From assembly GCA_016718405.1 (NCBI GenBank), contig JADKDJ010000035.1, forward strand, positions 39,972 to 103,971: a DNA stretch of 64,000 bases, given 5' to 3'. Both the position numbers and the translations under genes were made by a program. Position 1 is the stretch's first letter. Every line of letters starts with the position of its first letter. This document shows positions 29,439-49,108 of the stretch, in pieces. The notes below the pieces were generated by a model that saw only the letters and a list, made by a program, of their open reading frames with translations, was not told the DNA's origin and ran no database searches. Source of the DNA: Candidatus Rhodoferax odensensis. GTDB lineage: Bacteria; Pseudomonadota; Gammaproteobacteria; Burkholderiales; Burkholderiaceae_C.

Positions 29439-29718
29439 ATGTCGCGCGGGATGCCCCGACACGAAACCCAAGAACTGTAAGGGTTTGTATCCGTCAGGCG
29501 TAAACTACGCACCTGCATGCCTGCATCGCAACCCGTCCTCTCCCTGTTGACCAAGAAGCGTTTGTTCATCACACGCATGCGCCACTGTGGGCCTCCCCAG
29601 ACGATTTGAACCCTGCTCGTTCATTTCGTTGGTGGAGCCCTCATGAATCAATCTTGCCCAGCTAGTCATCTCCCTCTTGTTGTACCCGGACCTGCCGCCA
29701 TAGAGCGGGCTTAGCGCC

Positions 29719-37056: not shown

Positions 37057-38232
37057 TCAAGGCGCCAAGGGGTTGGAGAAACGACGCCAACTTATGCAGC
37101 GCACCCCTTCACGGGTATAGCTCTCATTGCCACCGTGAATGAGCCAGGGCTCGGGCGTTGGCTCAGTGACAAAGCGGGCGGCGCGTTGCCCGGCGCGCAC
37201 CAGGTCCGGCGTGATGGTCTGGCCGGACTTGATCTCGACACACTGCAAGCCCTGCGCGCTCTCGAACACCAGGTCAGCCTCCAGCCCGTTGTTGTCGCGC
37301 CAGAAGTAGAGGTCCGCCGGCAAGCCGCGATTGTCTCGGAACTTGCGAAACTCGCCGACAACCCAGGTTTCAAACAAGGCGCCGCGCATCGGGTGCAGCG
37401 CCAGCAGTGGCTCCTCGCGGATGCCCAACAGCCACGCGGCCAAACCGGTGTCGGTGAAATACAGTTTGGGTGTCTTGACCAGGCGCTTGCCAAAATTGCG
37501 GTGATACGGCTGCAGCAGGAACACCAGTTCGCTCGACTGCAGCACCGACAGCCAATGGCGCGCCGTGGTGTGACTCACGCCGGCGTCCGTGGCAAGCGAC
37601 ACCAGATTGAGCAGCGTGCCGGTTCGGGCGGCGCACAGGCGCACGAACCGCGCAAAGGTGGACAAATCCTGGACGCGCAGCAGTTGGCGCACGTCGCGTT
37701 CGACATAGGTCGCCACATAGCTGGAGAACCAGTCCATTGCCTCGATCGGTGAACGCTCCACCTGCCACAGGCTGGGGTACGAACCCAGCCACAAATGGGT
37801 ATACAAGTCTCGCTGCACTGCCGGGCCTAACTCGGACATCGCCAATGGCAGCAGCCTGGTGAGCCCAACGCGACCAGCCAGGGATTGCGTGACACCGGCC
37901 ATCAGGCCAAACTGTTGCGACCCGCTCAGGACGAAGCGCCCTGGCCTGCGGTCGGCATCGACCATGCCTTGCAGTAGAGAAAACAGCTCGGGCCAGCGCT
38001 GCGCCTCGTCGAAGATGGCGCCCTGGTCGAAGCGCTGCAGAAACCCCCTCGGATCGGTCTGCGCAAAACCAAGTTCCACCGGGTCTTCCAGCGACACATA
38101 GGTCTTGTCGGCAAAGACTTCGCGCACCAGCGTGGTCTTGCCGGACTGTCGCGGCCCCGTCACCGCCAAGACGGGGAACTGGCGCGCCAGGCGCAGCAAG
38201 GTAGCAGATAAGTCTCTGGGGAAGATATTCAT
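37057..38232 (-). CDS. AAA-family ATPase with DUF4143-type C-terminal domain
   Basis: ORF 37057..38256. The likely start is ATG 38232 (MNIFPRDLSATLLRLARQFPVLAVTGPRQSGKTTL). It has Walker A and Walker B-like (IFDEAQ) motifs. The upstream region is very AT-rich. Confidence 0.85.
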   Translation of the reverse strand: MNIFPRDLSATLLRLARQFPVLAVTGPRQSGKTTLVREVFADKTYVSLEDPVELGFAQTDPRGFLQRFDQGAIFDEAQRWPELFSLLQGMVDADRRPGRFVLSGSQQFGLMAGVTQSLAGRVGLTRLLPLAMSELGPAVQRDLYTHLWLGSYPSLWQVERSPIEAMDWFSSYVATYVERDVRQLLRVQDLSTFARFVRLCAARTGTLLNLVSLATDAGVSHTTARHWLSVLQSSELVFLLQPYHRNFGKRLVKTPKLYFTDTGLAAWLLGIREEPLLALHPMRGALFETWVVGEFRKFRDNRGLPADLYFWRDNNGLEADLVFESAQGLQCVEIKSGQTITPDLVRAGQRAARFVTEPTPEPWLIHGGNESYTREGVRCISWRRFSNPLAP

Positions 38233-38327
38233 ACAATTTGCATATATAAAATTCATATTGTATAGAAATCAGTCTTGAAGTCCATCCCGAGTGGCGGCTT
38301 CAAGTCGGGGCGGTCGCGCCCGCTGGT

Positions 38328-38840
38328 TCAGGCTCGCCGGCGCACCGCGCTCAGGATGCCGCGCAGAATCTCCAGCGGTGGCGGCGGGCAGCCCGACACC
38401 AGCACATCCACCGGGATCACATTGGCCACCGCGCCACAACTGGCGTAACTCTCGCCAAAAATGCCGCCATCACAACCACAGTCGCCCACCGCCACCACCA
38501 GCTTGGGAGAAGGCGTGGCGTCATAGGTACGCTTGAGCGCTTCTTCCATGTGGCGCGACACCGGCCCGGTCACCAGCAGCAGATCGGCATGGCGCGGACT
38601 GGCGACAAACTTGAGGCCCAGCCCCTCAATGTTGTAGTAGGGATTGGTCAACGCGTGAATCTCCAGTTCACAGCCATTGCAGGAGCCGGCATCCACCATG
38701 CGAATCGCCAGCGCCTGGCCCAGAATCTCCAACAATTCGCGCCCGATCGCCTGCGCCTGCGCGCGCTGGTTCTCGTCGAATGCGGGCGGCGCCTCCGTGC
38801 GAATTCCGTTGACCGCGATCTGGCGAATGATCTTCCACAT
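38328..38840 (-). CDS. module 2: NuoB/HycG-like small subunit
   Basis: ATG 38840 (ATGA overlap with the large-subunit stop) lies within ORF 38328..38948. It has GSCNGCELE, GDCGCDGG and SGCPPPP. Confidence 0.85.
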   Translation of the reverse strand: MWKIIRQIAVNGIRTEAPPAFDENQRAQAQAIGRELLEILGQALAIRMVDAGSCNGCELEIHALTNPYYNIEGLGLKFVASPRHADLLLVTGPVSRHMEEALKRTYDATPSPKLVVAVGDCGCDGGIFGESYASCGAVANVIPVDVLVSGCPPPPLEILRGILSAVRRRA

Positions 38841-40372
38841 CAGAGGTCGTGCCCCGAGTAACTGAGGTTGAAGGACTTGTTGATCAACGGAAAGTCCGGC
38901 ACGATGTTGCCAATCACCGCGTGCTCCAGCACCGGCCAGTTTTGCCACGAGGGGTCATGGCAGTGGCAGCGGCGGATTCGTTGTGGCTGCCCTGCATCGG
39001 CCAGCTCCAGCGCCACCAACACTTCGCCGCGCCAGCCCTCGACCCAACCGGCACCAAACGCGGCTGGCGGTGGCAGCGGCACAGCAGTGTGAACCGGCCC
39101 GGGCGTCAAACTCTCCAGAAGCGTCTGCATCAGGCGCAAGGACTCGGCCAACTCCTCGAACCGGACGATCACGCGGGCCGCCACATCACCGCCACGGTGC
39201 GTCACCATACGCGCCTGCAAGCGGTCATAAGGCGGCACGGCATGGTCGCAGCGCACGTCCCAAGCTTGCCCGCTGGCGCGCCCGGCCAGGCCGGTCAGAC
39301 CAAGTTGCGCCGCCAGGCCCGGCATGACCCGCCCGGTTGTCAAAAAGCGGTCCTGCAGACCCGCGTGCTCGTCGTAGATGACCCTCAGCGCCTGCACCTC
39401 GCGAGCGATGGCTTCGCCATGCTGGCGCAGTTGATCGACCTGCGCCGTATCAATATCGCTAGCCACGCCACCTGGGACGATGCGGTCCATCATCAGACGG
39501 TGCCCAAACACCTGGCCCGACCGGCGCAGCCAGTCTTCGCGCAGGCGCGAGAACTGCGCCAGACCAAAAGCGAATGCGGCGTCGTTGCCGAGGGCACCGA
39601 GGTCAGCCAGGTGGGCTGCCACGCGTTCGCGCTCCAACATCAGCGCGCGCAGCTCCGCCGCGCGGGCCGGCACCTCGACACCGCAGGCGGACTCCAGCGC
39701 CATGCAATAGGCCCAGGCATAGGCCACGGTGGAGTCGCCCGACACACGGCCCGCCAAACGGTGAGCCTGCAAGGGGTCGAGCTGCGTGAAGCGCCGCTCA
39801 ATCCCCTTGTGGGTGTAGCCCAGGTGTTGCTCCAGCCGCAGCACCTTCTCGCCCACCACCGAGAAGCGGAAATGCCCCGGCTCGATGATGCCCGCGTGCA
39901 CCGGACCCACCGCGATTTCATGCACGCCGTCGCCTTGCACCCGCACAAAGGGATAGCCACCGGGCGGCGTCCCCGCCGCCCAATTGCATGCCTCGTCAAG
40001 CAAGGGCGGCCGCGCGCCAAGCCACAAACCATGGTCGAGCCAAGGCCGACTGTCCAGGCTGGACGCGGCCTGCAGCCCATTTAGGTCCGCCAAGGCCCGC
40101 TGCATGCGGCTAGCGGCCGGAAATATGCCAGCCAGGTCGGGATAGACCCGTTCGGGGGGGCTAAGCACCAGCTCCAGCCAGAGCAAGCCTTCCAGCACGG
40201 CATAGGCCACCGATACCGCCACCCGATCCGCCGCGGTCACCCCCCACACCGCTACCAGTCGCCCGCCACCCTGGCGCACCGCCATGGCTGTGCTCAGCCA
40301 TTGGTCGGCGCTGACAAGGCCACGCCAGATTGGCGCCGCGCCGGGCAGACGTTGCAGGTCCAGGTCCATCAT
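38840..40372 (-). CDS. module 2: NuoC-NuoD/HycE-like large subunit with no cysteines at the NiFe-ligand positions
   Basis: ATG 40372 (ATGA overlap). It has AVGPVHAGIIEPGHFRF and LEQHLGYTHKGIE. At the L1 position it has GRVSGDSTVAY (39725..39745), and its C-terminus is FPLINKSFNLSYSGHDL. Confidence 0.85.
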   Translation of the reverse strand: MMDLDLQRLPGAAPIWRGLVSADQWLSTAMAVRQGGGRLVAVWGVTAADRVAVSVAYAVLEGLLWLELVLSPPERVYPDLAGIFPAASRMQRALADLNGLQAASSLDSRPWLDHGLWLGARPPLLDEACNWAAGTPPGGYPFVRVQGDGVHEIAVGPVHAGIIEPGHFRFSVVGEKVLRLEQHLGYTHKGIERRFTQLDPLQAHRLAGRVSGDSTVAYAWAYCMALESACGVEVPARAAELRALMLERERVAAHLADLGALGNDAAFAFGLAQFSRLREDWLRRSGQVFGHRLMMDRIVPGGVASDIDTAQVDQLRQHGEAIAREVQALRVIYDEHAGLQDRFLTTGRVMPGLAAQLGLTGLAGRASGQAWDVRCDHAVPPYDRLQARMVTHRGGDVAARVIVRFEELAESLRLMQTLLESLTPGPVHTAVPLPPPAAFGAGWVEGWRGEVLVALELADAGQPQRIRRCHCHDPSWQNWPVLEHAVIGNIVPDFPLINKSFNLSYSGHDL

Positions 40373-42270
40373 CGCCCGACGCCCCCCAACATGCCAGCGG
40401 CCTGAACGTACCATTGGTTCAAGTAAGGCGGAATGAACAGGCCCAGCACCAACCCCAGACCAAGATGAACGAACACCGGTAGCAAGGCCGGTGGATGCGC
40501 CAGCGGTTTGAGCGAGGTTTCGCCAAACACCATCGGCAACACGCGCACCAGCACCGAGGCAAAGGCCAGACCCAGCGCGAAGAACAGGAATGGCGCGGCC
40601 CAGGGCTGCTCGCGCATGGCGGTGGTCAAAATCAAAAACTCGCTGGCAAACACGCCAAAAGGCGGCATGCCCAGGATTGCCATGACGCCCAGCATCATTC
40701 CCCAGCCCACTCTCGGGTTGACCTTGATTAGACCGCGAATTTCACTCATCACCTGGGTCCCGGCCTTCTGCGCCGCATGCCCGACGGTGAAGAAGATGGC
40801 CGACTTGATCAACGAGTGCACCGTCATGTGCAACAGCCCCGCAAAGTTGGCCACCGGCCCGCCCATTCCAAAAGCAAACATGATCAGACCCATGTGTTCG
40901 ATCGACGAGTACGAAAACATGCGCTTGACGTCCTTCTGGCGCGACAGGAAAAAGGCCGCCACCACCAGCGACAGTAGGCCAAAACCCATCATCAATTGCC
41001 CAGCCAGTGGCCGCTGCAAGGCGCCATCGGTCAACACCTTGCAGCGCAGCAGCGCGTACATCGCCACATTGAGCAGCAGACCCGACAGCACGGCGGACAC
41101 CGGCGTAGGCCCTTCGGCATGCGCGTCGGGCAGCCAGCTGTGCAGCGGCACCATGCCGACCTTGGTGCCGTAGCCGATAAACAGGAAAGCAAACGCCAGC
41201 GTGATGATGTGCGGATCGAGCTGGGATTTGACCGCATCCAGATTCGTCCACAGCAGCGCGCCGCCTTCGGGGCCCACCACCTTTTCCGCCGCCATGTAAA
41301 GCAAAATGGTGCCGAACAGGGCCAGGGCGATGCCAACACCGCACAGAATGAAGTACTTCCAGGCCGCCTCCAGGCTGGCCGGTGTGCGGTAGACACTAAC
41401 CAGCAGCACGGTGGTGAGCGTCGCTGCCTCCATCGCGACCCACAGAATACCCAGGTTGTTCGTGGTCAGGCCCAGCAGCATGGTGCAACTGAACAACTGG
41501 TACATGCCGTGGTACAGGCGCATGCGCGGCGGAGTCATCTTGCCGTGGTCTTGCTCAACACGCATGTAGGGCCGCGAGAAAATGGCCGTGGTGAGGCCGA
41601 CAAACGCTGTCAAGGTGACCATGAAGACGTTCAGCGGGTCAATAAAGAGGCTGTCGAACTGCTCGCGAATCTGGAACATGAAGACGCCCCGAATCAGCAC
41701 ACCGACCAGCACGTCGAGCGCAACACCAAACTCCACAATCATTGGCATGCCATTGGTGACGGTGGTGGCCGCAAAAATCAAGCCGTTTTCCATCGACAAA
41801 AAGCCGATCACCTGCGGCACCGCCTTGGACCGGGTGATCATCATCAGGAAGGACAGCAGCACGCAGGCCAACGCGATGCCCAGCGAGCCACCGGCCATCG
41901 AACTGGACAAGCGAGAGATGGGCAGCGCCAGGCTGAACGAGAAGATCACCAGCCCAATCCCGACCAGCATGGTGGTTGGGATGTTGATCAGGGTCTCCAC
42001 ATCCCAGCGCACGTTCAATCGACGAACGACCACGTGCAGCAGCCACGGAATCAACATGACTTTGAGCACCAGCGTCAAGGCCGCCGACACGTAGAGTTCA
42101 TTCTGGTGCGTGACGTAGCCAAGCAGCACGGAGGCAATCACCAGCGCCAGGCCCTGCAGCATGAACAGGTTGATCAGCGACACAATGCGTCGCTGCGAGA
42201 TCATGGCGAAGGACAGCAACAGGATCACGGTGGCGCACAGGTTGATCAATTGCGGGATGTACTTCATCAC
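40369..42270 (-). CDS. module 2: fused HyfE-like + NuoN/HyfF-like membrane subunit
   Basis: 633-aa ORF. The N-terminal ~215 aa are HyfE-like (FLSMENGLIFAATT). The rest is antiporter-like (VPLHSWLPDAHAEGPTPVSAVLSGLLLNVA). A GTG/ATG start overlaps the upstream stop. Confidence 0.85.
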   Translation of the reverse strand: MMKYIPQLINLCATVILLLSFAMISQRRIVSLINLFMLQGLALVIASVLLGYVTHQNELYVSAALTLVLKVMLIPWLLHVVVRRLNVRWDVETLINIPTTMLVGIGLVIFSFSLALPISRLSSSMAGGSLGIALACVLLSFLMMITRSKAVPQVIGFLSMENGLIFAATTVTNGMPMIVEFGVALDVLVGVLIRGVFMFQIREQFDSLFIDPLNVFMVTLTAFVGLTTAIFSRPYMRVEQDHGKMTPPRMRLYHGMYQLFSCTMLLGLTTNNLGILWVAMEAATLTTVLLVSVYRTPASLEAAWKYFILCGVGIALALFGTILLYMAAEKVVGPEGGALLWTNLDAVKSQLDPHIITLAFAFLFIGYGTKVGMVPLHSWLPDAHAEGPTPVSAVLSGLLLNVAMYALLRCKVLTDGALQRPLAGQLMMGFGLLSLVVAAFFLSRQKDVKRMFSYSSIEHMGLIMFAFGMGGPVANFAGLLHMTVHSLIKSAIFFTVGHAAQKAGTQVMSEIRGLIKVNPRVGWGMMLGVMAILGMPPFGVFASEFLILTTAMREQPWAAPFLFFALGLAFASVLVRVLPMVFGETSLKPLAHPPALLPVFVHLGLGLVLGLFIPPYLNQWYVQAAGMLGGVGR

Positions 42271-43217
42271 CCCACCCCCAGCAAGATGTTCACCAGCAAG
42301 CCAATCACCGCCAGCAGGAACGCGGTAGCCAAAAACTCGGGCACGCGGAAGATCCGCATCTTGGCGCTGAAGGTTTCAACCAGCGCCAGCAACATGCCCC
42401 CAATGGCGAGCTTTCCTACCAGCGCCGGCAAGGCCATGATCAGCGCCAAGGGCGCATCCGCCTCGGCCACGCCCCACGGGAAAAACAGCGCCAGGCCGAT
42501 GCACGAGTAGGCAAATAGCTTGAGGCTGGCGGCCCACTCCAGCAACGCCAGATGGCGCCCGGAGTATTCCAGAATCAGCGCCTCGTGAATCATCGTGAGT
42601 TCCAGGTGCGTTTCCGGGTTGTCCACCGGGACACGAGCGTTTTCCGCCAACGACACCATGGTGAAGGCCACGCCCGCCACCAGCAGGCTGGGGTAAATTG
42701 CCAGCTCCCTGTGCGCAAGCGTCTCGACAATGGTGGTCAACGAGGTGGACTTTGAAATCATGGATGCGCAAAACAGCACCATCAGCAACGCGGGCTCCGC
42801 CAGAAACCCCACCAGCATGTCGCGGCGCGCGCCCAGGCCGCCAAAGGCGGTGCCGATGTCCATCGCCGCCAGGGAAGCAAAGACACGGGCCAGTGCAAAC
42901 AGACCGACCAGGGCAATCGCGTCCGCCGCGGGGGACAGCGGCAGGTCGGTCGATAGCGTGGGCACAATGGCGCACGCCAGCACCATGCAGCCAAAGCTGA
43001 TGTAGGGAACCATCCGAAACAGGGACGAAGCCTGCTCGGCCACCACCGATTCCTTGTGAAACAGCTTGCGCAATACCCGATAGGGCTGCAACAGGCCCGG
43101 CGCCGACTTGTTCTGCAAGCGGGCGCGCCACTGGTTGACCCAGCCCGTCAGCAGCGGTGCCAGCAGCAGCGCCGCCACAATCGCCATCAGTTGCGAGAAC
43201 AGGCCCAGAAGACTCAT
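42267..43217 (-). CDS. module 2: NuoH/HyfC(HycD)-like membrane subunit
   Basis: ATG 43217 (ATGA overlap) lies within ORF 42267..43358. It has ENARVPVDNPETHLELTMIHEALILEYSGRHLA. Confidence 0.85.
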   Translation of the reverse strand: MSLLGLFSQLMAIVAALLLAPLLTGWVNQWRARLQNKSAPGLLQPYRVLRKLFHKESVVAEQASSLFRMVPYISFGCMVLACAIVPTLSTDLPLSPAADAIALVGLFALARVFASLAAMDIGTAFGGLGARRDMLVGFLAEPALLMVLFCASMISKSTSLTTIVETLAHRELAIYPSLLVAGVAFTMVSLAENARVPVDNPETHLELTMIHEALILEYSGRHLALLEWAASLKLFAYSCIGLALFFPWGVAEADAPLALIMALPALVGKLAIGGMLLALVETFSAKMRIFRVPEFLATAFLLAVIGLLVNILLGVG

Positions 43218-45238
43218 TGCTGGACCACCAGCAAGACCACGATCAGGGTCACGAAGCTGTACAACAAATAGACCGCGATGCGGCCCCGCTGCAAGCGGCC
43301 AACCAGGCGCGACAGACGCTCGACAAAAGCCGCCACCGGCAGGTACAGCGCCCGCCACATCGGGTCCTCGACGGTGACGCGGTAAGCCGGGTCGGTATCG
43401 AAAGGGCTCGGCAACTCACGCGTCATGCGAAACATCGGCTCGAAGATCTGGCGTATCGGTTGGCCAAAGCCCTCCGCGCTATCCTGCATGCGGGGGGTCT
43501 GCAGCGCAAAGCCGCAATCCCAGGGCGGCGCGCGCCGCGTGCGCCCGTGGTAGAACCGGCGCACCAGAAAATAGGCCAGTGCGAAGCTGGCCAGCACACC
43601 CAACAGGAAAATGACGGGCGCGTAGCTGGCGCGCTCGGCATTCACCGGCACCAGCAACCAGTCGGCGGTCGTCAAGGATTGCGGCAGCGCGTCGGAAACC
43701 AGCAGGCGCGTGACCGGTCGAATCAAGGCAATGACCTGGTTAGGCAACAGCCCCAACACCACGCAACCGGCCGCCAGCCAGAGCATACCCACGCGTTCCC
43801 AGAACCCGGCGTCATGGGCTCGGGTCAGCTTCTCCTCGCGCGGCTGCCCCAGGAAGATGACCCCAAAGTACTTGACCATGGTGTAGCCCGACAGCGCCGC
43901 AATCAACGCGATCAGGGCCGCCACCACCGGTACCAGCATGTTCAAAAAAGAACTTGGCAAACCCGTGGTGAACAGAAAGCTCTGCAGCAGCAACCACTCC
44001 GCCACAAAACCGCCGAGCGGTGGCAAGCCGGCACAGGCCAAAGCGCCAATCAGCGTTGGCCAGGCGACCCAGGGCATGTAGCGGATCAGGCCTCCGAGCT
44101 TGCCCAGGCTGCGCTCGCCGGTGGCATGCAAAACCGAGCCGGTGCTGCAAAAAAGCAGGCTCTTGAACACACCGTGGCTGAGCGCATGGTAGAGCGACGC
44201 CGTCAGCGCCAAGGCCGCCGGACCGGTCATGCCGTAGGCCGAGAACAACAGGGCCAGCCCGAAGCCGGCACACATCAGCCCGATGTTCTCGATCGACGAA
44301 TAGGCCAGCAAACGTTTCATCTCGACCTGCACCGTGGAGAACACCACGCCGAACAGCGCAGTGGCCAGACCCAAGGTCATCAACAGCACGCCCCACCACC
44401 AAATGCGCGTCTGCAACAGGTCGAACGAGATGCGCAGCAAGCCATACAGGGCAATCTTCAGCATCACGCCACTCATCAGCGCAGAGAAAGGCGATGGCGC
44501 CGCCGGATGCGCCTCGGGCAGCCAAGCGTGCAAGGGCACAATGCCGGCCTTGGCACCGAAGCCGAACACCGCCAGCACAAAGGCGACCGAACCCCAGAAC
44601 GGCGACAGGTGCTGCGCACGCATGTTGGCAAAGGTGTAGTCGCCCGTGTTGGCCTGAAGCACCCCGAAGCACAGCAGGATGCCCAGCGCGCCAATGTGGG
44701 CCACCAGCATGTACAGGTAGGCCGCGTTGCGGATTTCGGGAATGCGGTGGTTCGCCATCACCAAGAAAAAAGAAGACAGCGCCATGGTCTCCCAGACGAC
44801 CATGAACACATACGCGTCATCGGCCATCACCACCATGGCGATGCTGGCCAGGAATACGTGGTACTCCAGGCAGATCAGGCCGGGTGGCGTGCCCTCGCCC
44901 TTGCGAAAGTAGCCCGCCGCAAACGCCGACACGCCCGTCGATACCCCGCCGATGAGCAGCAGGAAGAAGGCCGACAGGCCATCCAGACGCAGATGGAAAG
45001 GCAACTGCGGCAGGCCGATGGGCAGCACCGCAACCTCGGGCGTCCCCAGCGCCGCGTTGAAGGCCACCACGAGCAGGACCAGCGAGCACAACGCGCTCAG
45101 GGGGAACAGCACGGTGGCGATCAGCCGCAGCCGCCACAAAGCCACCACGCCGTCGCAGCCTATCAGCAACCAGGCCACAACCACCACCAACACCCAGTCG
45201 AGATGCACCCAGCCGGACGGCATCACCAAGGCGCTCAT
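43214..45238 (-). CDS. module 2: NuoL/HyfB(HycC)-like proton-conducting antiporter subunit
   Basis: 674-aa ORF. It has VPLHAWLPEAHPAAPSPFSALMSGVMLKIA and a HyfB-type C-terminal extension (PPWDCGF...). Confidence 0.88.
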   Translation of the reverse strand: MSALVMPSGWVHLDWVLVVVVAWLLIGCDGVVALWRLRLIATVLFPLSALCSLVLLVVAFNAALGTPEVAVLPIGLPQLPFHLRLDGLSAFFLLLIGGVSTGVSAFAAGYFRKGEGTPPGLICLEYHVFLASIAMVVMADDAYVFMVVWETMALSSFFLVMANHRIPEIRNAAYLYMLVAHIGALGILLCFGVLQANTGDYTFANMRAQHLSPFWGSVAFVLAVFGFGAKAGIVPLHAWLPEAHPAAPSPFSALMSGVMLKIALYGLLRISFDLLQTRIWWWGVLLMTLGLATALFGVVFSTVQVEMKRLLAYSSIENIGLMCAGFGLALLFSAYGMTGPAALALTASLYHALSHGVFKSLLFCSTGSVLHATGERSLGKLGGLIRYMPWVAWPTLIGALACAGLPPLGGFVAEWLLLQSFLFTTGLPSSFLNMLVPVVAALIALIAALSGYTMVKYFGVIFLGQPREEKLTRAHDAGFWERVGMLWLAAGCVVLGLLPNQVIALIRPVTRLLVSDALPQSLTTADWLLVPVNAERASYAPVIFLLGVLASFALAYFLVRRFYHGRTRRAPPWDCGFALQTPRMQDSAEGFGQPIRQIFEPMFRMTRELPSPFDTDPAYRVTVEDPMWRALYLPVAAFVERLSRLVGRLQRGRIAVYLLYSFVTLIVVLLVVQQ

Positions 45239-45360
45239 TCGCCTACACCCACAACAACGACCAGCACAGTCAACGACATGGCAACATCATGTTACAGGCC
45301 CCGCCTGGCGTCAATTGTCTCCACCATGCAGGTTGTGGCTACCGCGCACAACCGTTGGCG

Positions 45361-46155
45361 TCACCGTACCAGTTCGGGGGCAAACAGGCTCAGCCCGTCG
45401 CGCACTTGCTCCAGCGACAGACCGGCCAGCGCGACCCTGCGGGTCAGGCGCATCGGTCGAGCCGTCTGCAAGCGCGGCATCACCAACAAGACGCACAGCT
45501 CGGCCTCATCACCGCGCATCAGACGTTTGTGCGCAAGCACGCCTTGCCAAACCGAATCGTGTGGATCAACCTGCGGCAACAGGGTGACGCAGATGGTCCG
45601 CCTGTCGCAAAGAAAGACCGCGGCACTGAATGGCTCTGAAGTGGGGTCCACACTCAACTCGCCCCCGTCGAACAAGGGGTCCGCCTTTAGGATACGGTGC
45701 AGCATTTCCGCCAGGCTATAACGCATGGTCTCGGCGGGCAACAACCGCAGGGGTTCTGGGTGCCGCGTAAGCCCCCCCAAGCCAAGCAAGGCGTCGCAGC
45801 CGTCGTAACGCTCACAGGAGAGCCCCCAGTCCGGCTCCGTCTCACACGCTGCCATCACCTGTTTGGTGTCTTCGGCTACATAGCAAACAGCGTCGAGCCA
45901 CTCCATGGCTCGCTCAAAAACCCGGCTCATGTCGAATGCCTCGGGAAACTGCCGAATGAAGGGTAGCGGGTCGATCGCGCCGGCCGTGCTGTGCATCAGC
46001 GGTGATGCCAGATGCACCCGCTGCCCGTCGCGCCAAATCACGGCGCAAACATGCCCGTTTGTTGAGCCGGGCGGGCGGAATCTGACGAGCTTGAGCGCGC
46101 GCCGACCGGAAGGCGAGTCAGGCGTCTGGGTCGTTGCTCGCGGGCGCAGCGCCAT
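45361..46155 (-). CDS. hypothetical protein, no recognisable family; first gene upstream of module 2
   Basis: 264-aa ORF with coding-like composition, co-directional with its neighbours. It lies 19 nt after the OmpA-like gene and 122 nt before the HyfB-like gene. The start is uncertain. Confidence 0.55.
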   Translation of the reverse strand: MALRPRATTQTPDSPSGRRALKLVRFRPPGSTNGHVCAVIWRDGQRVHLASPLMHSTAGAIDPLPFIRQFPEAFDMSRVFERAMEWLDAVCYVAEDTKQVMAACETEPDWGLSCERYDGCDALLGLGGLTRHPEPLRLLPAETMRYSLAEMLHRILKADPLFDGGELSVDPTSEPFSAAVFLCDRRTICVTLLPQVDPHDSVWQGVLAHKRLMRGDEAELCVLLVMPRLQTARPMRLTRRVALAGLSLEQVRDGLSLFAPELVR

Positions 46156-46173
46156 CGGTTCCCCAGTGTCGCG

Positions 46174-46722
46174 TCAACGTGTCTTGTAGTTCAAATCAGC
46201 ACGGCGATTCTTGGACCAGGACTCTTCGTCGTGACCAAGCCCCACGGGCTTCTCCTTGCCAAAACTGATGGCTTCCATGCGCTTGTCGGACACTCCCAGC
46301 AACTTGAGTGACTGCAATGCCGCCTCGGCACGCTTTTGTCCCAACGCCAGGTTGTACTCGCGGCCGCCACGCTCATCGGCGTGGCCCTCCAGCCGCAGAT
46401 TGGCGGTCTGGTGACTGAGCATGTATTTGCCGTGATTGTCCAGAATGGCGGCATCCGACGCATGGACAACATAGCTGTCGAAGTCGAAGTGCACACTTCT
46501 TGCGGCCAATGGCGACTTCGGATCATCCAGGGGGTGAACCACCACTGCGGCCACGGTGGATTTGGCCGCTGGCTGCGTACCACCGGTCGCAGCACCAGCG
46601 CCGGAACCTGCTGCCGCCCCAGATGCGGAAGATGCGGTTGAGGACAACGGAGTCGGGCTGCTGCAACCCGCTGCTACCAATGCCAATGCGATGACGGCGC
46701 CAGCGAGGAATTTCGAATTCAT
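46174..46722 (-). CDS. OmpA-family (Pal-like) lipoprotein
   Basis: ORF 46174..46800. The start is set at ATG 46722, after AAAGGAAC. It has a lipobox (LVAAGCSS), a low-complexity linker and an OmpA C-terminal domain (LEGHADERGGREYNLALGQKRAEA). Confidence 0.88.
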   Translation of the reverse strand: MNSKFLAGAVIALALVAAGCSSPTPLSSTASSASGAAAGSGAGAATGGTQPAAKSTVAAVVVHPLDDPKSPLAARSVHFDFDSYVVHASDAAILDNHGKYMLSHQTANLRLEGHADERGGREYNLALGQKRAEAALQSLKLLGVSDKRMEAISFGKEKPVGLGHDEESWSKNRRADLNYKTR

Positions 46723-46819
46723 GATGGGTTCCTTTGAGATGTTACGGGAGTGCCCGCCCCTCTGATTTCCTTGGTGGGCGATCGCGATGCGAAGCTTCAT
46801 TTTTATTTACCTTGTGTTT

Positions 46820-46845
46820 AATTGCAATTGCAATTCAATTAACAT
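46820..46845 (+). promoter_or_regulatory. AT-rich (G)CAATT-repeat element, copy S1 (AATTGCAATTGCAATTCAATTAACAT)
   Basis: It matches copy S2 at 48735..48760 at 23 of 26 positions, in the same orientation. It contains the palindrome AATTGCAATT. It lies 98 nt upstream of the OmpA-like start. AT-rich similarity extends about 20 nt further 5'. Confidence 0.6.
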
Positions 46846-46903
46846 GCTCGGTGTTTTGTGATGTGACTTCGGGGGGCGCGCCGACCCCCGTGGCAGGCCA
46901 TTT

Positions 46904-47648
46904 CTAGAGCGAACTGTTGGCGCGGCGCTCCAGAACACGCAAGATGCGTTGGAACTCGGGTCTGAGTTGAACTTGTGCCTCGGCAGCGTGGCGCTTCAAG
47001 CTCCAACTCAGACTCATCCCACGCGCCGATATCGGCACTCCCTTGCCTGCGAAAACAACACAATTGTCTCGTTCGTTGACATCGACCGGAACGGCATTTC
47101 CGTGAAACGACTGCTCGATCCGCGCAACGAAGGTGGCGTGCGCCGGGTGTCCGGCGTCCAGATTCACTGCCAACACGCTGCGTTCACGCATCGCCCGCCA
47201 GCAGTCCTTGTAAAAACTCTGCGAGCAAAGCTGCGCGGCCAATCCATGCTGCGCATAGCCGTCAACCAGGATGACATCAAACTGAGGCCCGACGTCGGGA
47301 ACAAAGTCGATTGCATCGGCGCAGACCACTCGCAAGCGCTCATCGTCATCGGGAATCGAAAATTGGCGCCTGACCGCAATCACATGGGGATTGATCTCGA
47401 CCACCGTCATGCGGGTCGCGGGCAGGTGCCGATGGCAAAATCTTGACAATAGAGCCGCCTCCCAAACCGACCATCAGGATGTGTACCGGGTTTGGGATGG
47501 TCAGAAGAAATCCCATCATCGTTTTGGTGTAGGCCACTTCCAGGTCGAATGGCCGCGCGGGACACATCATGCTTTGCACCTCATCAATGCTGAAATGCAA
47601 AGTCCGATGCTCGCCATCGTCGCTGATAAAGGGAAGGCAGTGCAGCAT
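46904..47648 (-). pseudogene. SpeE-like (spermidine synthase fold) SAM-dependent transferase, frameshifted paralog
   Basis: Two overlapping ORFs (47346..47648 and 46904..47449) together align to the intact paralog 47817..48554. The frame switches right after GLGGGS, near 47437..47445 (AAGATTTTGCC on the coding strand). Deleting 1 nt there restores ...SIVKFCHRHLPATRMTVVEINPHV. Confidence 0.7.
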
Positions 47649-47816
47649 GGGTTTGGAGTGATCACTCGTTGGGCACTATCGCGCAGGCGCAAGGCGCCAC
47701 CCATGTGACAGCCAGCACGACGGAGCCCGCCACACAGGGGCCGGGGCAAGGGCCGGCAAATATCACCCCAAGACACTTCGCAACCCAGCGTTGACTTGAC
47801 CGAATGGTCATGTCCA

Positions 47817-48554
47817 TTAAGCCTCGCTGAACGAAGCCGTCTGCAACAGATTGCTGTCGCCAAAGGTGGCACGGAACAATTCAATACTGTCGCGCAAATC
47901 AGCTGCCGAAAGTGCATGACCCTTCCCGGCAAAAACAATCACGTTGCCTTCCCGATTGGCCAAGACTTCTGCGAGGTTACCGTTGAATGATCGATCTATT
48001 CGCTCGATGAATGTCTCGTAGAAGTGATGGGTCTCATGAAGGTTGACAGCCATAACGCCGTGGTCGCTCAAAACCCTGCTACAGCCGTCGTAAAAATCCT
48101 GGGAACACAATTGCGGTGGCTGCCCGCGGTGATCAAAACCGTCAACCAACAACACATCCACATCACATTCTGCGTGACGTACAAAGTCGGCGCCGTCCGC
48201 CTCGATCACTTTGAAACGCTCGTCATCGTCGGGCACCAGGAACTCTCTTCGCAATGCGATGACATGAGGGTTGATTTCCACTGCTGTTATCCGTGCTTCT
48301 GGCAGATTCCGATAGCAATACTTCGCCAGACTCCCGCCCCCCAAGCCGATCATCACAATGTGGCGCGGCCGAGGGTTCAGAACCAGGAAGCCCATCATTG
48401 TCTTGGTGTAATCAACATCCAATTGGTCCGGTTGAGCAACCCGCATCCTGCTCTGCAGTTGATCAATGGAAAAGTGCAACGACTTGCAACCCCCTTCGTA
48501 AAAGGCAAACGGAATTGGGTGTTTCGGAATTTTTGTATCGACGTGTTCTGACAT
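47817..48554 (-). CDS. SpeE-like (spermidine synthase fold) SAM-dependent transferase
   Basis: ORF 47817..48641 (TTG start). I prefer the ATG at 48554 (MSEHVDTK...) by comparison with the paralog N-terminus. It has IVMIGLGGGSLAKY, AVEINPHVI, LLVDGFD and MAVNL. Confidence 0.8.
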   Translation of the reverse strand: MSEHVDTKIPKHPIPFAFYEGGCKSLHFSIDQLQSRMRVAQPDQLDVDYTKTMMGFLVLNPRPRHIVMIGLGGGSLAKYCYRNLPEARITAVEINPHVIALRREFLVPDDDERFKVIEADGADFVRHAECDVDVLLVDGFDHRGQPPQLCSQDFYDGCSRVLSDHGVMAVNLHETHHFYETFIERIDRSFNGNLAEVLANREGNVIVFAGKGHALSAADLRDSIELFRATFGDSNLLQTASFSEA

Positions 48555-48734
48555 CGGCAAGAGGATCGCTTTATTGAAAGGTGCCACCCTGCGCTTGTTC
48601 CGGTTCAAGGCTCTCGCGGGAGGTCTCGTAAACAATAACAATGCCTTCGAAGAGTTGTGACACGGCGAATTCGCTCACGCACGACAGGAAGCGCATTTTT
48701 AGTGGCTTAGACACATTTTATTAACTTTTTAGTC

Positions 48735-48760
48735 AATTGCAATTACAATTTGATTAACAT
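48735..48760 (+). promoter_or_regulatory. AT-rich (G)CAATT-repeat element, copy S2 (AATTGCAATTACAATTTGATTAACAT), candidate RHH operator
   Basis: It ends 13 nt before the RHH gene ATG (48774), just before the CTGGAG ribosome-binding site, in the divergent intergenic region shared with the SpeE-like gene. Confidence 0.6.
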
Positions 48761-48773
48761 ACTGGAGCCCTCC

Positions 48774-48971
48774 ATGGAACTGAAGACCGCGCGCCTGACC
48801 GTCTTGATAGACCCTGCCAAGAAGCATGCCTTCGAGCAACTGTGCGGCCGCCAGGACATGACCCCCTCGCAGATCGTGCGCAAACTCATCCGGGACTACC
48901 TCGTGCTTCACGGGGAAGAGTTCATCCCCAGCGGTTTGGCCAAGAAGACCGGCCGCACACCGCGCAAGTAG
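48774..48971 (+). CDS. ribbon-helix-helix (CopG-like) DNA-binding protein
   Basis: ATG 48774 lies within ORF 48750..48971. The sequence RLTVLIDPAKKHAFEQLCGRQDMTPSQIVRKLIRDYL fits a beta-strand followed by two helices, the RHH pattern. Confidence 0.75.
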   Translation: MELKTARLTVLIDPAKKHAFEQLCGRQDMTPSQIVRKLIRDYLVLHGEEFIPSGLAKKTGRTPRK

Positions 48972-49108
48972 GCTCCAACTCAGGCTCGTACGGCGCGCGG
49001 ACATCACAGCCAAGGCCAGAATGGTCACGCCCCTTGGTACAAGCGGGGAGCGGAGACGCGGATCAGAGAAGTTGGGTAGCCGCTAAAATGCTCGCCAAAG
49101 GCCCATTC

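Follow-up and report, generated by a model that had tools for sequence, protein, structure and literature searches.

Two copies of a probable RHH_9 promoter/operator bracket a SpeE-like gene pair in Candidatus Rhodoferax odensensis

Introduction

Ribbon-helix-helix (RHH) proteins contact DNA as dimers, through a two-stranded beta-sheet that enters the major groove, and they typically bind adjacent sub-sites one turn apart, as is the case for Arc, Mnt, CopG and omega. The present analysis deals with a candidate operator of this kind in Candidatus Rhodoferax odensensis (assembly GCA_016718405.1), namely a short AT-rich element that occurs twice, as S1 and S2, on a 64,000-nucleotide (nt) stretch of contig JADKDJ010000035.1 (positions 39,972 to 103,971 of the forward strand). 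This whole stretch is called the window hereafter, and its own numbering is used throughout. The two copies bracket a pair of SpeE-like genes, A and B. S2 separates SpeE-like B from a divergently transcribed gene for a small RHH protein of the family RHH_9 (PF19839). S1 has the 3' end of SpeE-like A on one side and, on the other, the start of a Pal/OmpA-like lipoprotein gene, which is followed leftward by a hypothetical gene (hyp264) and the Ehr-2 gene cluster.

In several respects the locus resembles the systems of Arc and Mnt (phage P22), CopG (pMV158) and omega (pSM19035). A short RHH protein is encoded beside its own putative site, short repeated or inverted units follow each other about one helical turn apart over predicted promoter hexamers, and a single repressor would serve divergent or multiple promoters. 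Unlike these systems, which serve phages or plasmids, RHH_9 is chromosomal and associated with genes that resemble those of respiratory complexes. A small RHH protein with a palindromic site at its own promoter is likewise found among the RHH antitoxins of type II toxin-antitoxin systems, from which the locus differs in lacking a toxin partner: no toxin-family domain was found among the neighbours of the RHH gene, which is followed on the plus strand by DUF3460, scpA and nadB and preceded, here or in relatives, by SpeE-like, YoaK, Pal-like or Ehr genes.

Complexes of the Ehr/Hyq type are widespread relatives of complex I and of group-4 hydrogenases, the physiological role of which is, to our knowledge, unsolved; nor do we know of any characterised member of the RHH_9 family. 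For RHH_9, neither a solved structure (best PDB match E=0.94) nor an NCBIfam name was found, and no literature was found that links RHH_9/PF19839, or any ribbon-helix-helix protein, to hyf/Ehr/Hyq clusters. The kind of element described here, a conventional RHH operator, is known, while there seems to be no earlier description of this family, of its consensus or of its link to Ehr clusters. In Azorhizobium caulinodans, the hyqRBCEFGI 'endo-hydrogenase' operon was reported to be under the control of a NifA box and a sigma-54 promoter, and this literature gives no protein class for HyqR (PMC2650096). That operon places a hyfB-like six-gene membrane complex after a small first gene, hyqR, comparable to the order RHH_9 to Ehr-2 L-type subunit gene at many Burkholderiales loci; unlike the NifA/sigma-54 control of hyq, the present element is palindromic and, by prediction, sigma-70-like.

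A conserved element in front of RHH_9 genes

On comparative evidence, S1 and S2 are likely to be two copies of the promoter/operator of the RHH_9 regulator and, as such, a shared operator. A first-pass annotation of the window had offered this as one of two alternatives, the other being direct repeats that bound a cassette of SpeE-like genes, and the comparison supports it: the element is palindromic, tracks RHH_9 over dozens of genera and is absent where the regulator is absent; S1 keeps every family-conserved position despite its diverged flanks; and second sites not adjacent to the regulator gene occur elsewhere with the same gene string.

The family was defined from a scan of species-representative genomes for RHH_9, which gave 252 relatives, all of them in Burkholderiales, and from which 80 loci were kept; homologues on plasmids were confined to Betaproteobacteria and one Pantoea. 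The regions upstream of these 80 RHH_9 genes share one theme, with an aligned site in 76 of them. Its consensus consists of a -10-like TAnAAT followed by a 19-bp palindrome, ATGnnAAT-N3-ATTnnCAT, with two 8-bp half-sites whose centres lie 11 bp apart, and the strongly conserved columns (T...AT-G..AAT-...-ATT..CAT) hold in 61-73 of the 76 sites. For the AT, AAT, ATT and CAT positions, conservation was also put at 70 or more of 76. In S1 and S2 the palindrome takes the form ATT(G/A)CAAT-N3-ATTAACAT. Related elements are found 12-15 nt before the RHH_9 ATG in other genera, such as gaTTGCAATTACAATTTGATTAACAT in genome G012 and gTGCAATTATAATGTGATTAACAT in genome G005, and the 23-nt core of S2 recurs unchanged upstream of the RHH_9 genes of G012 and of eight metagenome contigs. 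In the metagenome scan, the 23-nt degenerate form used as query was too degenerate, so that 68 of the 80 loci obtained are low-GC chance matches; the 12 informative, GC-rich matches adjoin an RHH_9 gene without exception, eight of them with the exact 23-mer of S2, while the RHH_9 proteins encoded there are only 48-88% identical to that of the window. The DNA element is, in this comparison, at least as conserved as the protein, a pattern characteristic of cis-regulatory sites that are under selection, and S2 is, judged from sequence, the RHH_9 gene's own control region.

The same association holds in a set of 41 whole genomes (G000 plus 40 relatives), where only four matches to the 23-nt degenerate pattern exist when one mismatch is tolerated, namely S1, S2 and one upstream of RHH_9 in each of G012 and G005; the reversed pattern, run as a control, gave 0 matches. 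S1 is thus the only copy in this sample which does not directly precede an RHH_9 gene. The pattern is present only in genomes that encode RHH_9, i.e. site and regulator are kept together across genomes; relatives without RHH, the congener G001 among them, lack the site. In addition, residue 10 of RHH_9 (V or L; window 48801-48803), part of the conserved N-terminus MELKTARLT(V/L)L that is predicted to form the beta-strand, covaries with operator position 13 (A or C). The counts are 41/7 vs 4/17 (p=2e-7, 69 loci), a test that ignores shared ancestry, and being uncorrected for phylogeny this covariation is only a hint.

Sequence, rarity and extent of the two copies

The two 26-mers lie on the plus strand at the places given by the first-pass annotation and are identical at 23 of 26 positions, and its distances of 13 nt from the end of S2 to the RHH ATG (48774) and 98 nt from the start of S1 to the Pal/OmpA-like ATG (46722) are likewise correct. 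Shuffling the window 100 times produced a match to the 26-mer in 0 of 100 cases, and in the whole genome (4.87 Mb in 42 contigs, 62.7% GC) S1 and S2 are the only matches to either 26-mer with up to 6 mismatches. The motif is therefore not the common genome-wide sequence which the annotation had named as an objection, nor is it a generic dispersed intergenic repeat of the REP (repetitive extragenic palindromic) or MITE (miniature inverted-repeat transposable element) kind, of which many scattered copies would be seen. The palindrome AATTGCAATT by itself has five occurrences genome-wide, three of them within S1 and S2.

Similarity was also said to extend some 20 nt further 5', and in part this stands: S1 and S2 can be aligned over about 45 bp (46801-46845 and 48716-48760), with 13 matches in the 5' 19 nt, which is unusual compared to random genomic DNA (11/5000) but not compared to shuffles of the same AT-rich letters. 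On the 3' side of the core, the similarity of S1 and S2 is not significant (score 2.0 vs a random genomic mean of 3.7). A candidate remnant of the RHH gene after S1 (alignment A1, ATGTGACTT..GCGCGCCGACC) was rejected: in semi-global alignments, the downstream 60 and 100 nt were no better than random genomic DNA, so the apparent vestige of an RHH 5' end is unsupported, and a six-frame hmmsearch of the region after S1 found no RHH remnant. A structured RNA element was likewise discarded, with no Rfam match better than E=0.5 and weak folds of -5.5 and -5.8 kcal/mol.

S1 as a member of the family

For scoring, a 26-nt position weight matrix was built by iterative refinement from other genomes only, with initial sites picked by similarity to S2 and S1 left unused. 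Applied to the genome, it ranks S2 first and S1 second (scores in Table 1); the next independent matches reach 19.3 and 18.5 bits, both inside open reading frames (ORFs), and no further one exceeds 20 bits. S1 and S2 differ at matrix positions 11, 17 and 18 only, all three of them degenerate in the family, and the family-conserved positions are intact in S1. Compared with the single site of metagenome contig L116, the closest relative found, the core of S1 is identical at 21 of 24 positions, while the orthologous 99-nt flank is identical at 50 of 99 (Fisher p=0.001), non-homologous flank pairs giving 31-34 of 99. The core is separated from the Pal-like ATG by 99 nt both at S1 and at the L116 site. 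Such a pattern argues for continued constraint on S1, with the reservation that conservation does not prove activity.

Apart from S1 and S2, matches to the matrix in the genome are not convincing as sites. One, at C3:133233, is inside an ORF of 681 amino acids (aa). Another, outside the window at C10:150957-150982 (CAATTGCATAATCAACTCATTAACAT, 18.5 bits), falls within the final codons of a membrane/ferredoxin-like ORF of 515 aa, and a 166-aa ORF (MSKFTRYT...) begins some 45 nt further on; this match may be due to chance or be a weak third site. The weaker relative that the first-pass annotation had pointed out at 38231-38263 has to be dropped from the family, as its 13.9 bits are in the range of the 26 genome background matches of at least 14 bits. 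This AT-rich region (38225-38263), before or overlapping the start of a DUF4143 ATPase ORF, contains an inverted repeat of its own, ATACAAT...ATTGTAT.

Proposed mechanism

RHH_9 is single-copy in the genome, a six-frame hmmsearch giving one match at 6e-36 and nothing better than E=0.01 after it; hence, both sites most likely serve RHH_9. According to the proposed mechanism, this one protein would bind S1 as well as S2. Occupancy of S2 would lead to autoregulation, i.e. repression of the RHH gene, and to repression of the divergent SpeE-like genes, while occupancy of S1 would repress the leftward transcript of Pal-like, hyp264 and Ehr-2 genes. The spacing of the half-sites, 11 bp from centre to centre, is what one would expect if two RHH dimers bind side by side, and the palindromic core is flanked by further phased CAATT units and by overlapping divergent -35/-10-like hexamers (Table 1). 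At S2, the predicted divergent promoters (48715..48749) overlap each other as well as the operator. The leftward pair is conserved in position, reading TTGCAA, 16 nt, TACAAT in L116, with TAAAAT at S2 and TAAAAA at S1 as the second hexamer.

Second sites and gene neighbourhood in other genomes

In 15 of the 80 loci, the matrix gives a match of at least 19 bits elsewhere than at the RHH ATG; in the Hydrogenophaga group, the site is merely one small ORF further upstream. Four loci (L064, L070, L080, L068) carry a second site just upstream of a hyp264 homologue, oriented like the RHH-proximal site and heading an operon of hyp264, SpeE, a second RHH paralogue and Ehr-2 L. On a Burkholderia stagnalis plasmid with one RHH gene nearby, a 27-bit palindrome occupies the divergent region of hyfB and yoaK, and a site of about 18-20 bits stands right before RHH. 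Sites away from the regulator but before the same gene set are thus recurrent.

Neighbourhoods were counted by tblastn of the window proteins against the 80 RHH_9 loci. At 49 of these, an Ehr L-type subunit is encoded no more than 4 kb from RHH_9, being an orthologue either of Ehr-2 (often with RHH leading directly into Ehr-2 L) or of Ehr-1 (downstream or divergent); the orthologue of the window gene 43214-45238 directly follows RHH_9 in many loci. SpeE-like genes are beside RHH_9 in 33/80 loci and hyp264 homologues near it in 15/80, while a Pal-like gene is near it in 2/80 (L023, L054), divergent across a single site, as is also the case in L116. Individual arrangements include the B. stagnalis plasmid (hyfB cluster leftward; yoaK and RHH rightward; spermidine synthase leftward), a Variovorax plasmid with Ehr-1 divergent from RHH, and the Cupriavidus metallidurans CH34 chromid, where RHH is present at both ends of Ehr-2, leading into Ehr-2 at one end and standing divergent from a SpeE-like gene across a site at the other. 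In the 41 genomes, Ehr-2 is present in 5/8 of those with RHH vs 5/33 of those without, so the link between RHH and Ehr-2 is frequent, not obligatory.

Some further observations concern these neighbourhoods. Ehr-1 or Ehr-2, one to three SpeE-like genes, YoaK/DUF1275, hyp264 and the Pal-like lipoprotein are recurrent neighbours of RHH_9 (L009-L088, L101-L103), with module order and orientation varying widely between genomes, and many Burkholderiales genomes have a pair of RHH_9 paralogues, of which one belongs to the operon and the other is divergent. A universal stress protein gene on Variovorax sp. PBL-E5 plasmid 3 is preceded, at a distance of about 100 nt, by a strong operator-like palindrome of 26.6 bits (L103, 227-259), which lies on the side of the Ehr-1 cluster that faces away from the RHH gene. 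RHH_9 and operator lie between metG and the first Ehr-1 gene (Ehr-1 L) in L049, L071 and L081. The corresponding place before Ehr-1 in the window (29439-29718, a gap of 280 nt) was considered as an operator location and contains neither RHH gene nor site, so that Ehr-1 here lacks an RHH_9 regulator. In Variovorax sp. CF079 (L080, 2697-3770), Ehr-1 L-type pseudogene fragments and a long GC-rich 6-nt microsatellite lie between two operator sites; the GCGGAT-type unit of the latter reads as Cys-Gly, Arg-Met, Asp-Ala, His-Pro and Ala-Ser dipeptide repeats in its frames, and the whole suggests decay and rearrangement around operator elements.

Several of the findings weigh against a shared operator. 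Genome G005 has RHH and site and no Ehr L gene, RHH and Ehr are 3 Mb apart in G012, and G001 has Ehr-2 without RHH. The hexamers of S1 (TAAAAA, TGCAAT) are weaker than those of S2 and below the scan threshold, and S1 retains the RHH-facing orientation, yet there is no gene on that side. The genomes with second sites before hyp264 also carry a second RHH paralogue and are therefore no proof of one protein serving two sites. Furthermore, no obvious ligand-binding or sensor domain was found in the 65-aa RHH_9 protein.

History of the duplicated site

Protein identities between the window and L116 amount to 93% for NadB, 90% for ScpA, 88% for RHH, 78% for the Pal-like protein and 91% for Ehr-2 L. 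On that contig, RHH, DUF3460, scpA and nadB run away from one site in one direction, Pal-like and Ehr-2 L in the other, and the SpeE pair is lacking. The site equals S2 over the 24-nt TTGCAATT…AACAT core; the RHH gene adjoins it on the right, and on the left it is followed by sequence orthologous to that on the left of S1. Compared to L116, the window thus contains the SpeE pair and one copy of the site in addition, both between Pal-like and RHH. Sister genomes without the pair had been proposed as a check for an empty site marked by a single copy, and L116 is such a case, L023 and L054 being similar.

The base composition of the SpeE-like pair is atypical, with a third-codon-position GC content (GC3) of 0.50 for A and 0.59 for B vs 0.75-0.85 in neighbouring genes. 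A and B share about 50% protein identity and no nucleotide similarity; they are old paralogues, and a recent tandem duplication together with the repeat was rejected on these grounds. A third SpeE-like paralogue, 55% identical, is encoded on contig C41 at about 42.8-43.5 kb.

The congener G001, with an Ehr-2 L 96% identical to that of the window, does not possess the block of about 3.8 kb (45306..49087) that comprises hyp264, Pal-like, S1, SpeE-A, SpeE-B, S2 and RHH. At this place (L224, G001:C12 3175-3275), its sequence is identical up to window position 45305, continues with about 100 nt of unrelated DNA and resumes homology at GCCGCTAAAATGC before DUF3460; no operator site was found in the 14 kb of G001 examined. 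Since the whole block is missing, regulator and sites were gained or lost together.

Both copies would derive from one ancestral site in an order that is still found in relatives, with Pal-like and RHH divergent across it, and the SpeE-like pair would have come to lie between two copies by insertion, or reciprocal deletion, at the operator. The origin may have been an insertion (e.g. by single-crossover integration at the operator) or, for L116, a deletion between the repeats. Consequently, the second alternative of the first-pass annotation, repeats bounding a SpeE cassette, is borne out as history by the single site of L116 and the atypical SpeE composition, but not as a mobile cassette. A wider proposal, which we hold to be possible yet on the unlikely side, combines both aspects: RHH_9 would be the dedicated repressor of a conserved Burkholderiales regulon (Ehr-1, Ehr-2, SpeE-like, YoaK, Pal-like, hyp264 and, in some genomes, universal stress protein), and the 45-bp operator would at the same time be the short homology at which modules are inserted, deleted or inverted.

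Alternative explanations

Among the competing explanations, a relic is the one that survives best, and it appears improbable. Here, S1 would be a functionless leftover of the insertion of the SpeE pair at the operator, with the Pal-like and Ehr-2 genes being read from S2 or another promoter. The single site of L116 in the same flanking synteny without the SpeE pair agrees with this, as do the GC3 of the pair, the weaker hexamers of S1 and the lack of both an RHH gene and its remnant after S1. A decayed site is difficult to reconcile, however, with a core matching L116 at 21/24 beside an orthologous flank at only 50/99, with S1/S2 differences that all fall on degenerate positions, or with the 99-nt spacing to the Pal-like ATG, which is that of L116, where the site is the only one of the operon.

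Still less probable is a conserved promoter, or the site of another protein, that drives the RHH_9 gene and is not bound by RHH_9. In its favour is the -10-like TAnAAT hexamer within the conserved block. Against it, the conserved positions show the twofold symmetry that is usual where a protein binds as a dimer, sites away from RHH genes occur only in RHH_9 genomes, the beta-strand of the protein covaries with the operator, and the 23-mer is more conserved than the protein. Finally, a mobile or site-specifically recombined SpeE cassette with the repeats as its ends or attachment sites is a very improbable explanation, given that, for all the direct repeats around a 1.9-kb segment of atypical composition and the varying gene order around the element, no recombinase or transposase was found among the neighbours (SpeE-like, Pal-like, RHH, DUF3460, ScpA), no terminal inverted repeats are visible at the segment ends, only two copies exist genome-wide, SpeE-like genes are regular neighbours in 33/80 loci, and the repeat is the conserved operator of the adjoining gene.

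Features of the locus

The coordinates of the two copies, their promoter-like hexamers and the adjoining genes are compiled in Table 1. Within the Ehr-2 cluster, the hydrogenase-4 subunit B-like gene is that at 43214-45238, from where the remaining Ehr-2 genes run downwards.

Table 1. Coordinates of the S1 and S2 elements, predicted hexamers and neighbouring genes in the window
Feature	Coordinates	Strand	Basis or remarks
S1 core 26-mer AATTGCAATTGCAATTCAATTAACAT	46820..46845	+	family-matrix score 24.9 bits
S1 palindrome part ATTGCAAT-TCA-ATTAACAT	46827-46845		corresponds to the 19-bp palindrome of the family
S1 extended unit, about 45 bp	46801..46845	.	weak promoter-like hexamers, placed homologously to those of S2
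S1 leftward hexamers TTGCAA, 16 nt, TAAAAA	46827-46822, 46805-46800		facing the Pal-like gene; read from sequence
S1 rightward hexamers TTTACC, 17 nt, TGCAAT			read from sequence, homology to S2
S2 core 26-mer AATTGCAATTACAATTTGATTAACAT	48735..48760	+	family-matrix score 30.0 bits
S2 palindrome part	48742-48760
S2 sigma-70-like hexamers TTAACT, 17 nt, TACAAT	48721 to 48749	+	towards RHH; consensus match only
S2 hexamers TTGCAA, 16 nt, TAAAAT	48742-48737, 48720-48715	-	towards SpeE-like B; consensus match only
RHH_9 ribbon-helix-helix gene, 65 aa	48774..48971	+	presumed trans-acting regulator; Pfam PF19839, E=5e-22, residues 1-52
SpeE-like gene B (polyamine aminopropyltransferase-like)	47817..48554	-	Pfam, NCBIfam; divergent from RHH at S2
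SpeE-like gene A	46904..47648	-	two frames (46904-47449, 47346-47648)
Pal/OmpA-like lipoprotein gene	46174..46722	-	first gene left of S1; lipoprotein start MNSKF...AAGC
hyp264, 264-aa hypothetical protein	45361..46155	-	without family assignment
Ehr-2 genes (hydrogenase-4/HyfB-like, NuoH-like, NuoL-like, NuoCD-like)	38840..45238	-	distal part of the string headed by S1

Significance

With a shared RHH_9 operator as the preferred reading, PF19839 would gain a testable function and a DNA target. A small dedicated regulator with a sharply defined, conserved operator at the heads of Ehr clusters would provide a handle on these complexes, and the operator matrix would be a route to listing co-regulated genes (SpeE-like, YoaK, Pal-like, hyp264), which are possible accessory factors of the complex. 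If the combination of regulon and recombination were true as well, one and the same sequence would both control and shuffle this gene set.

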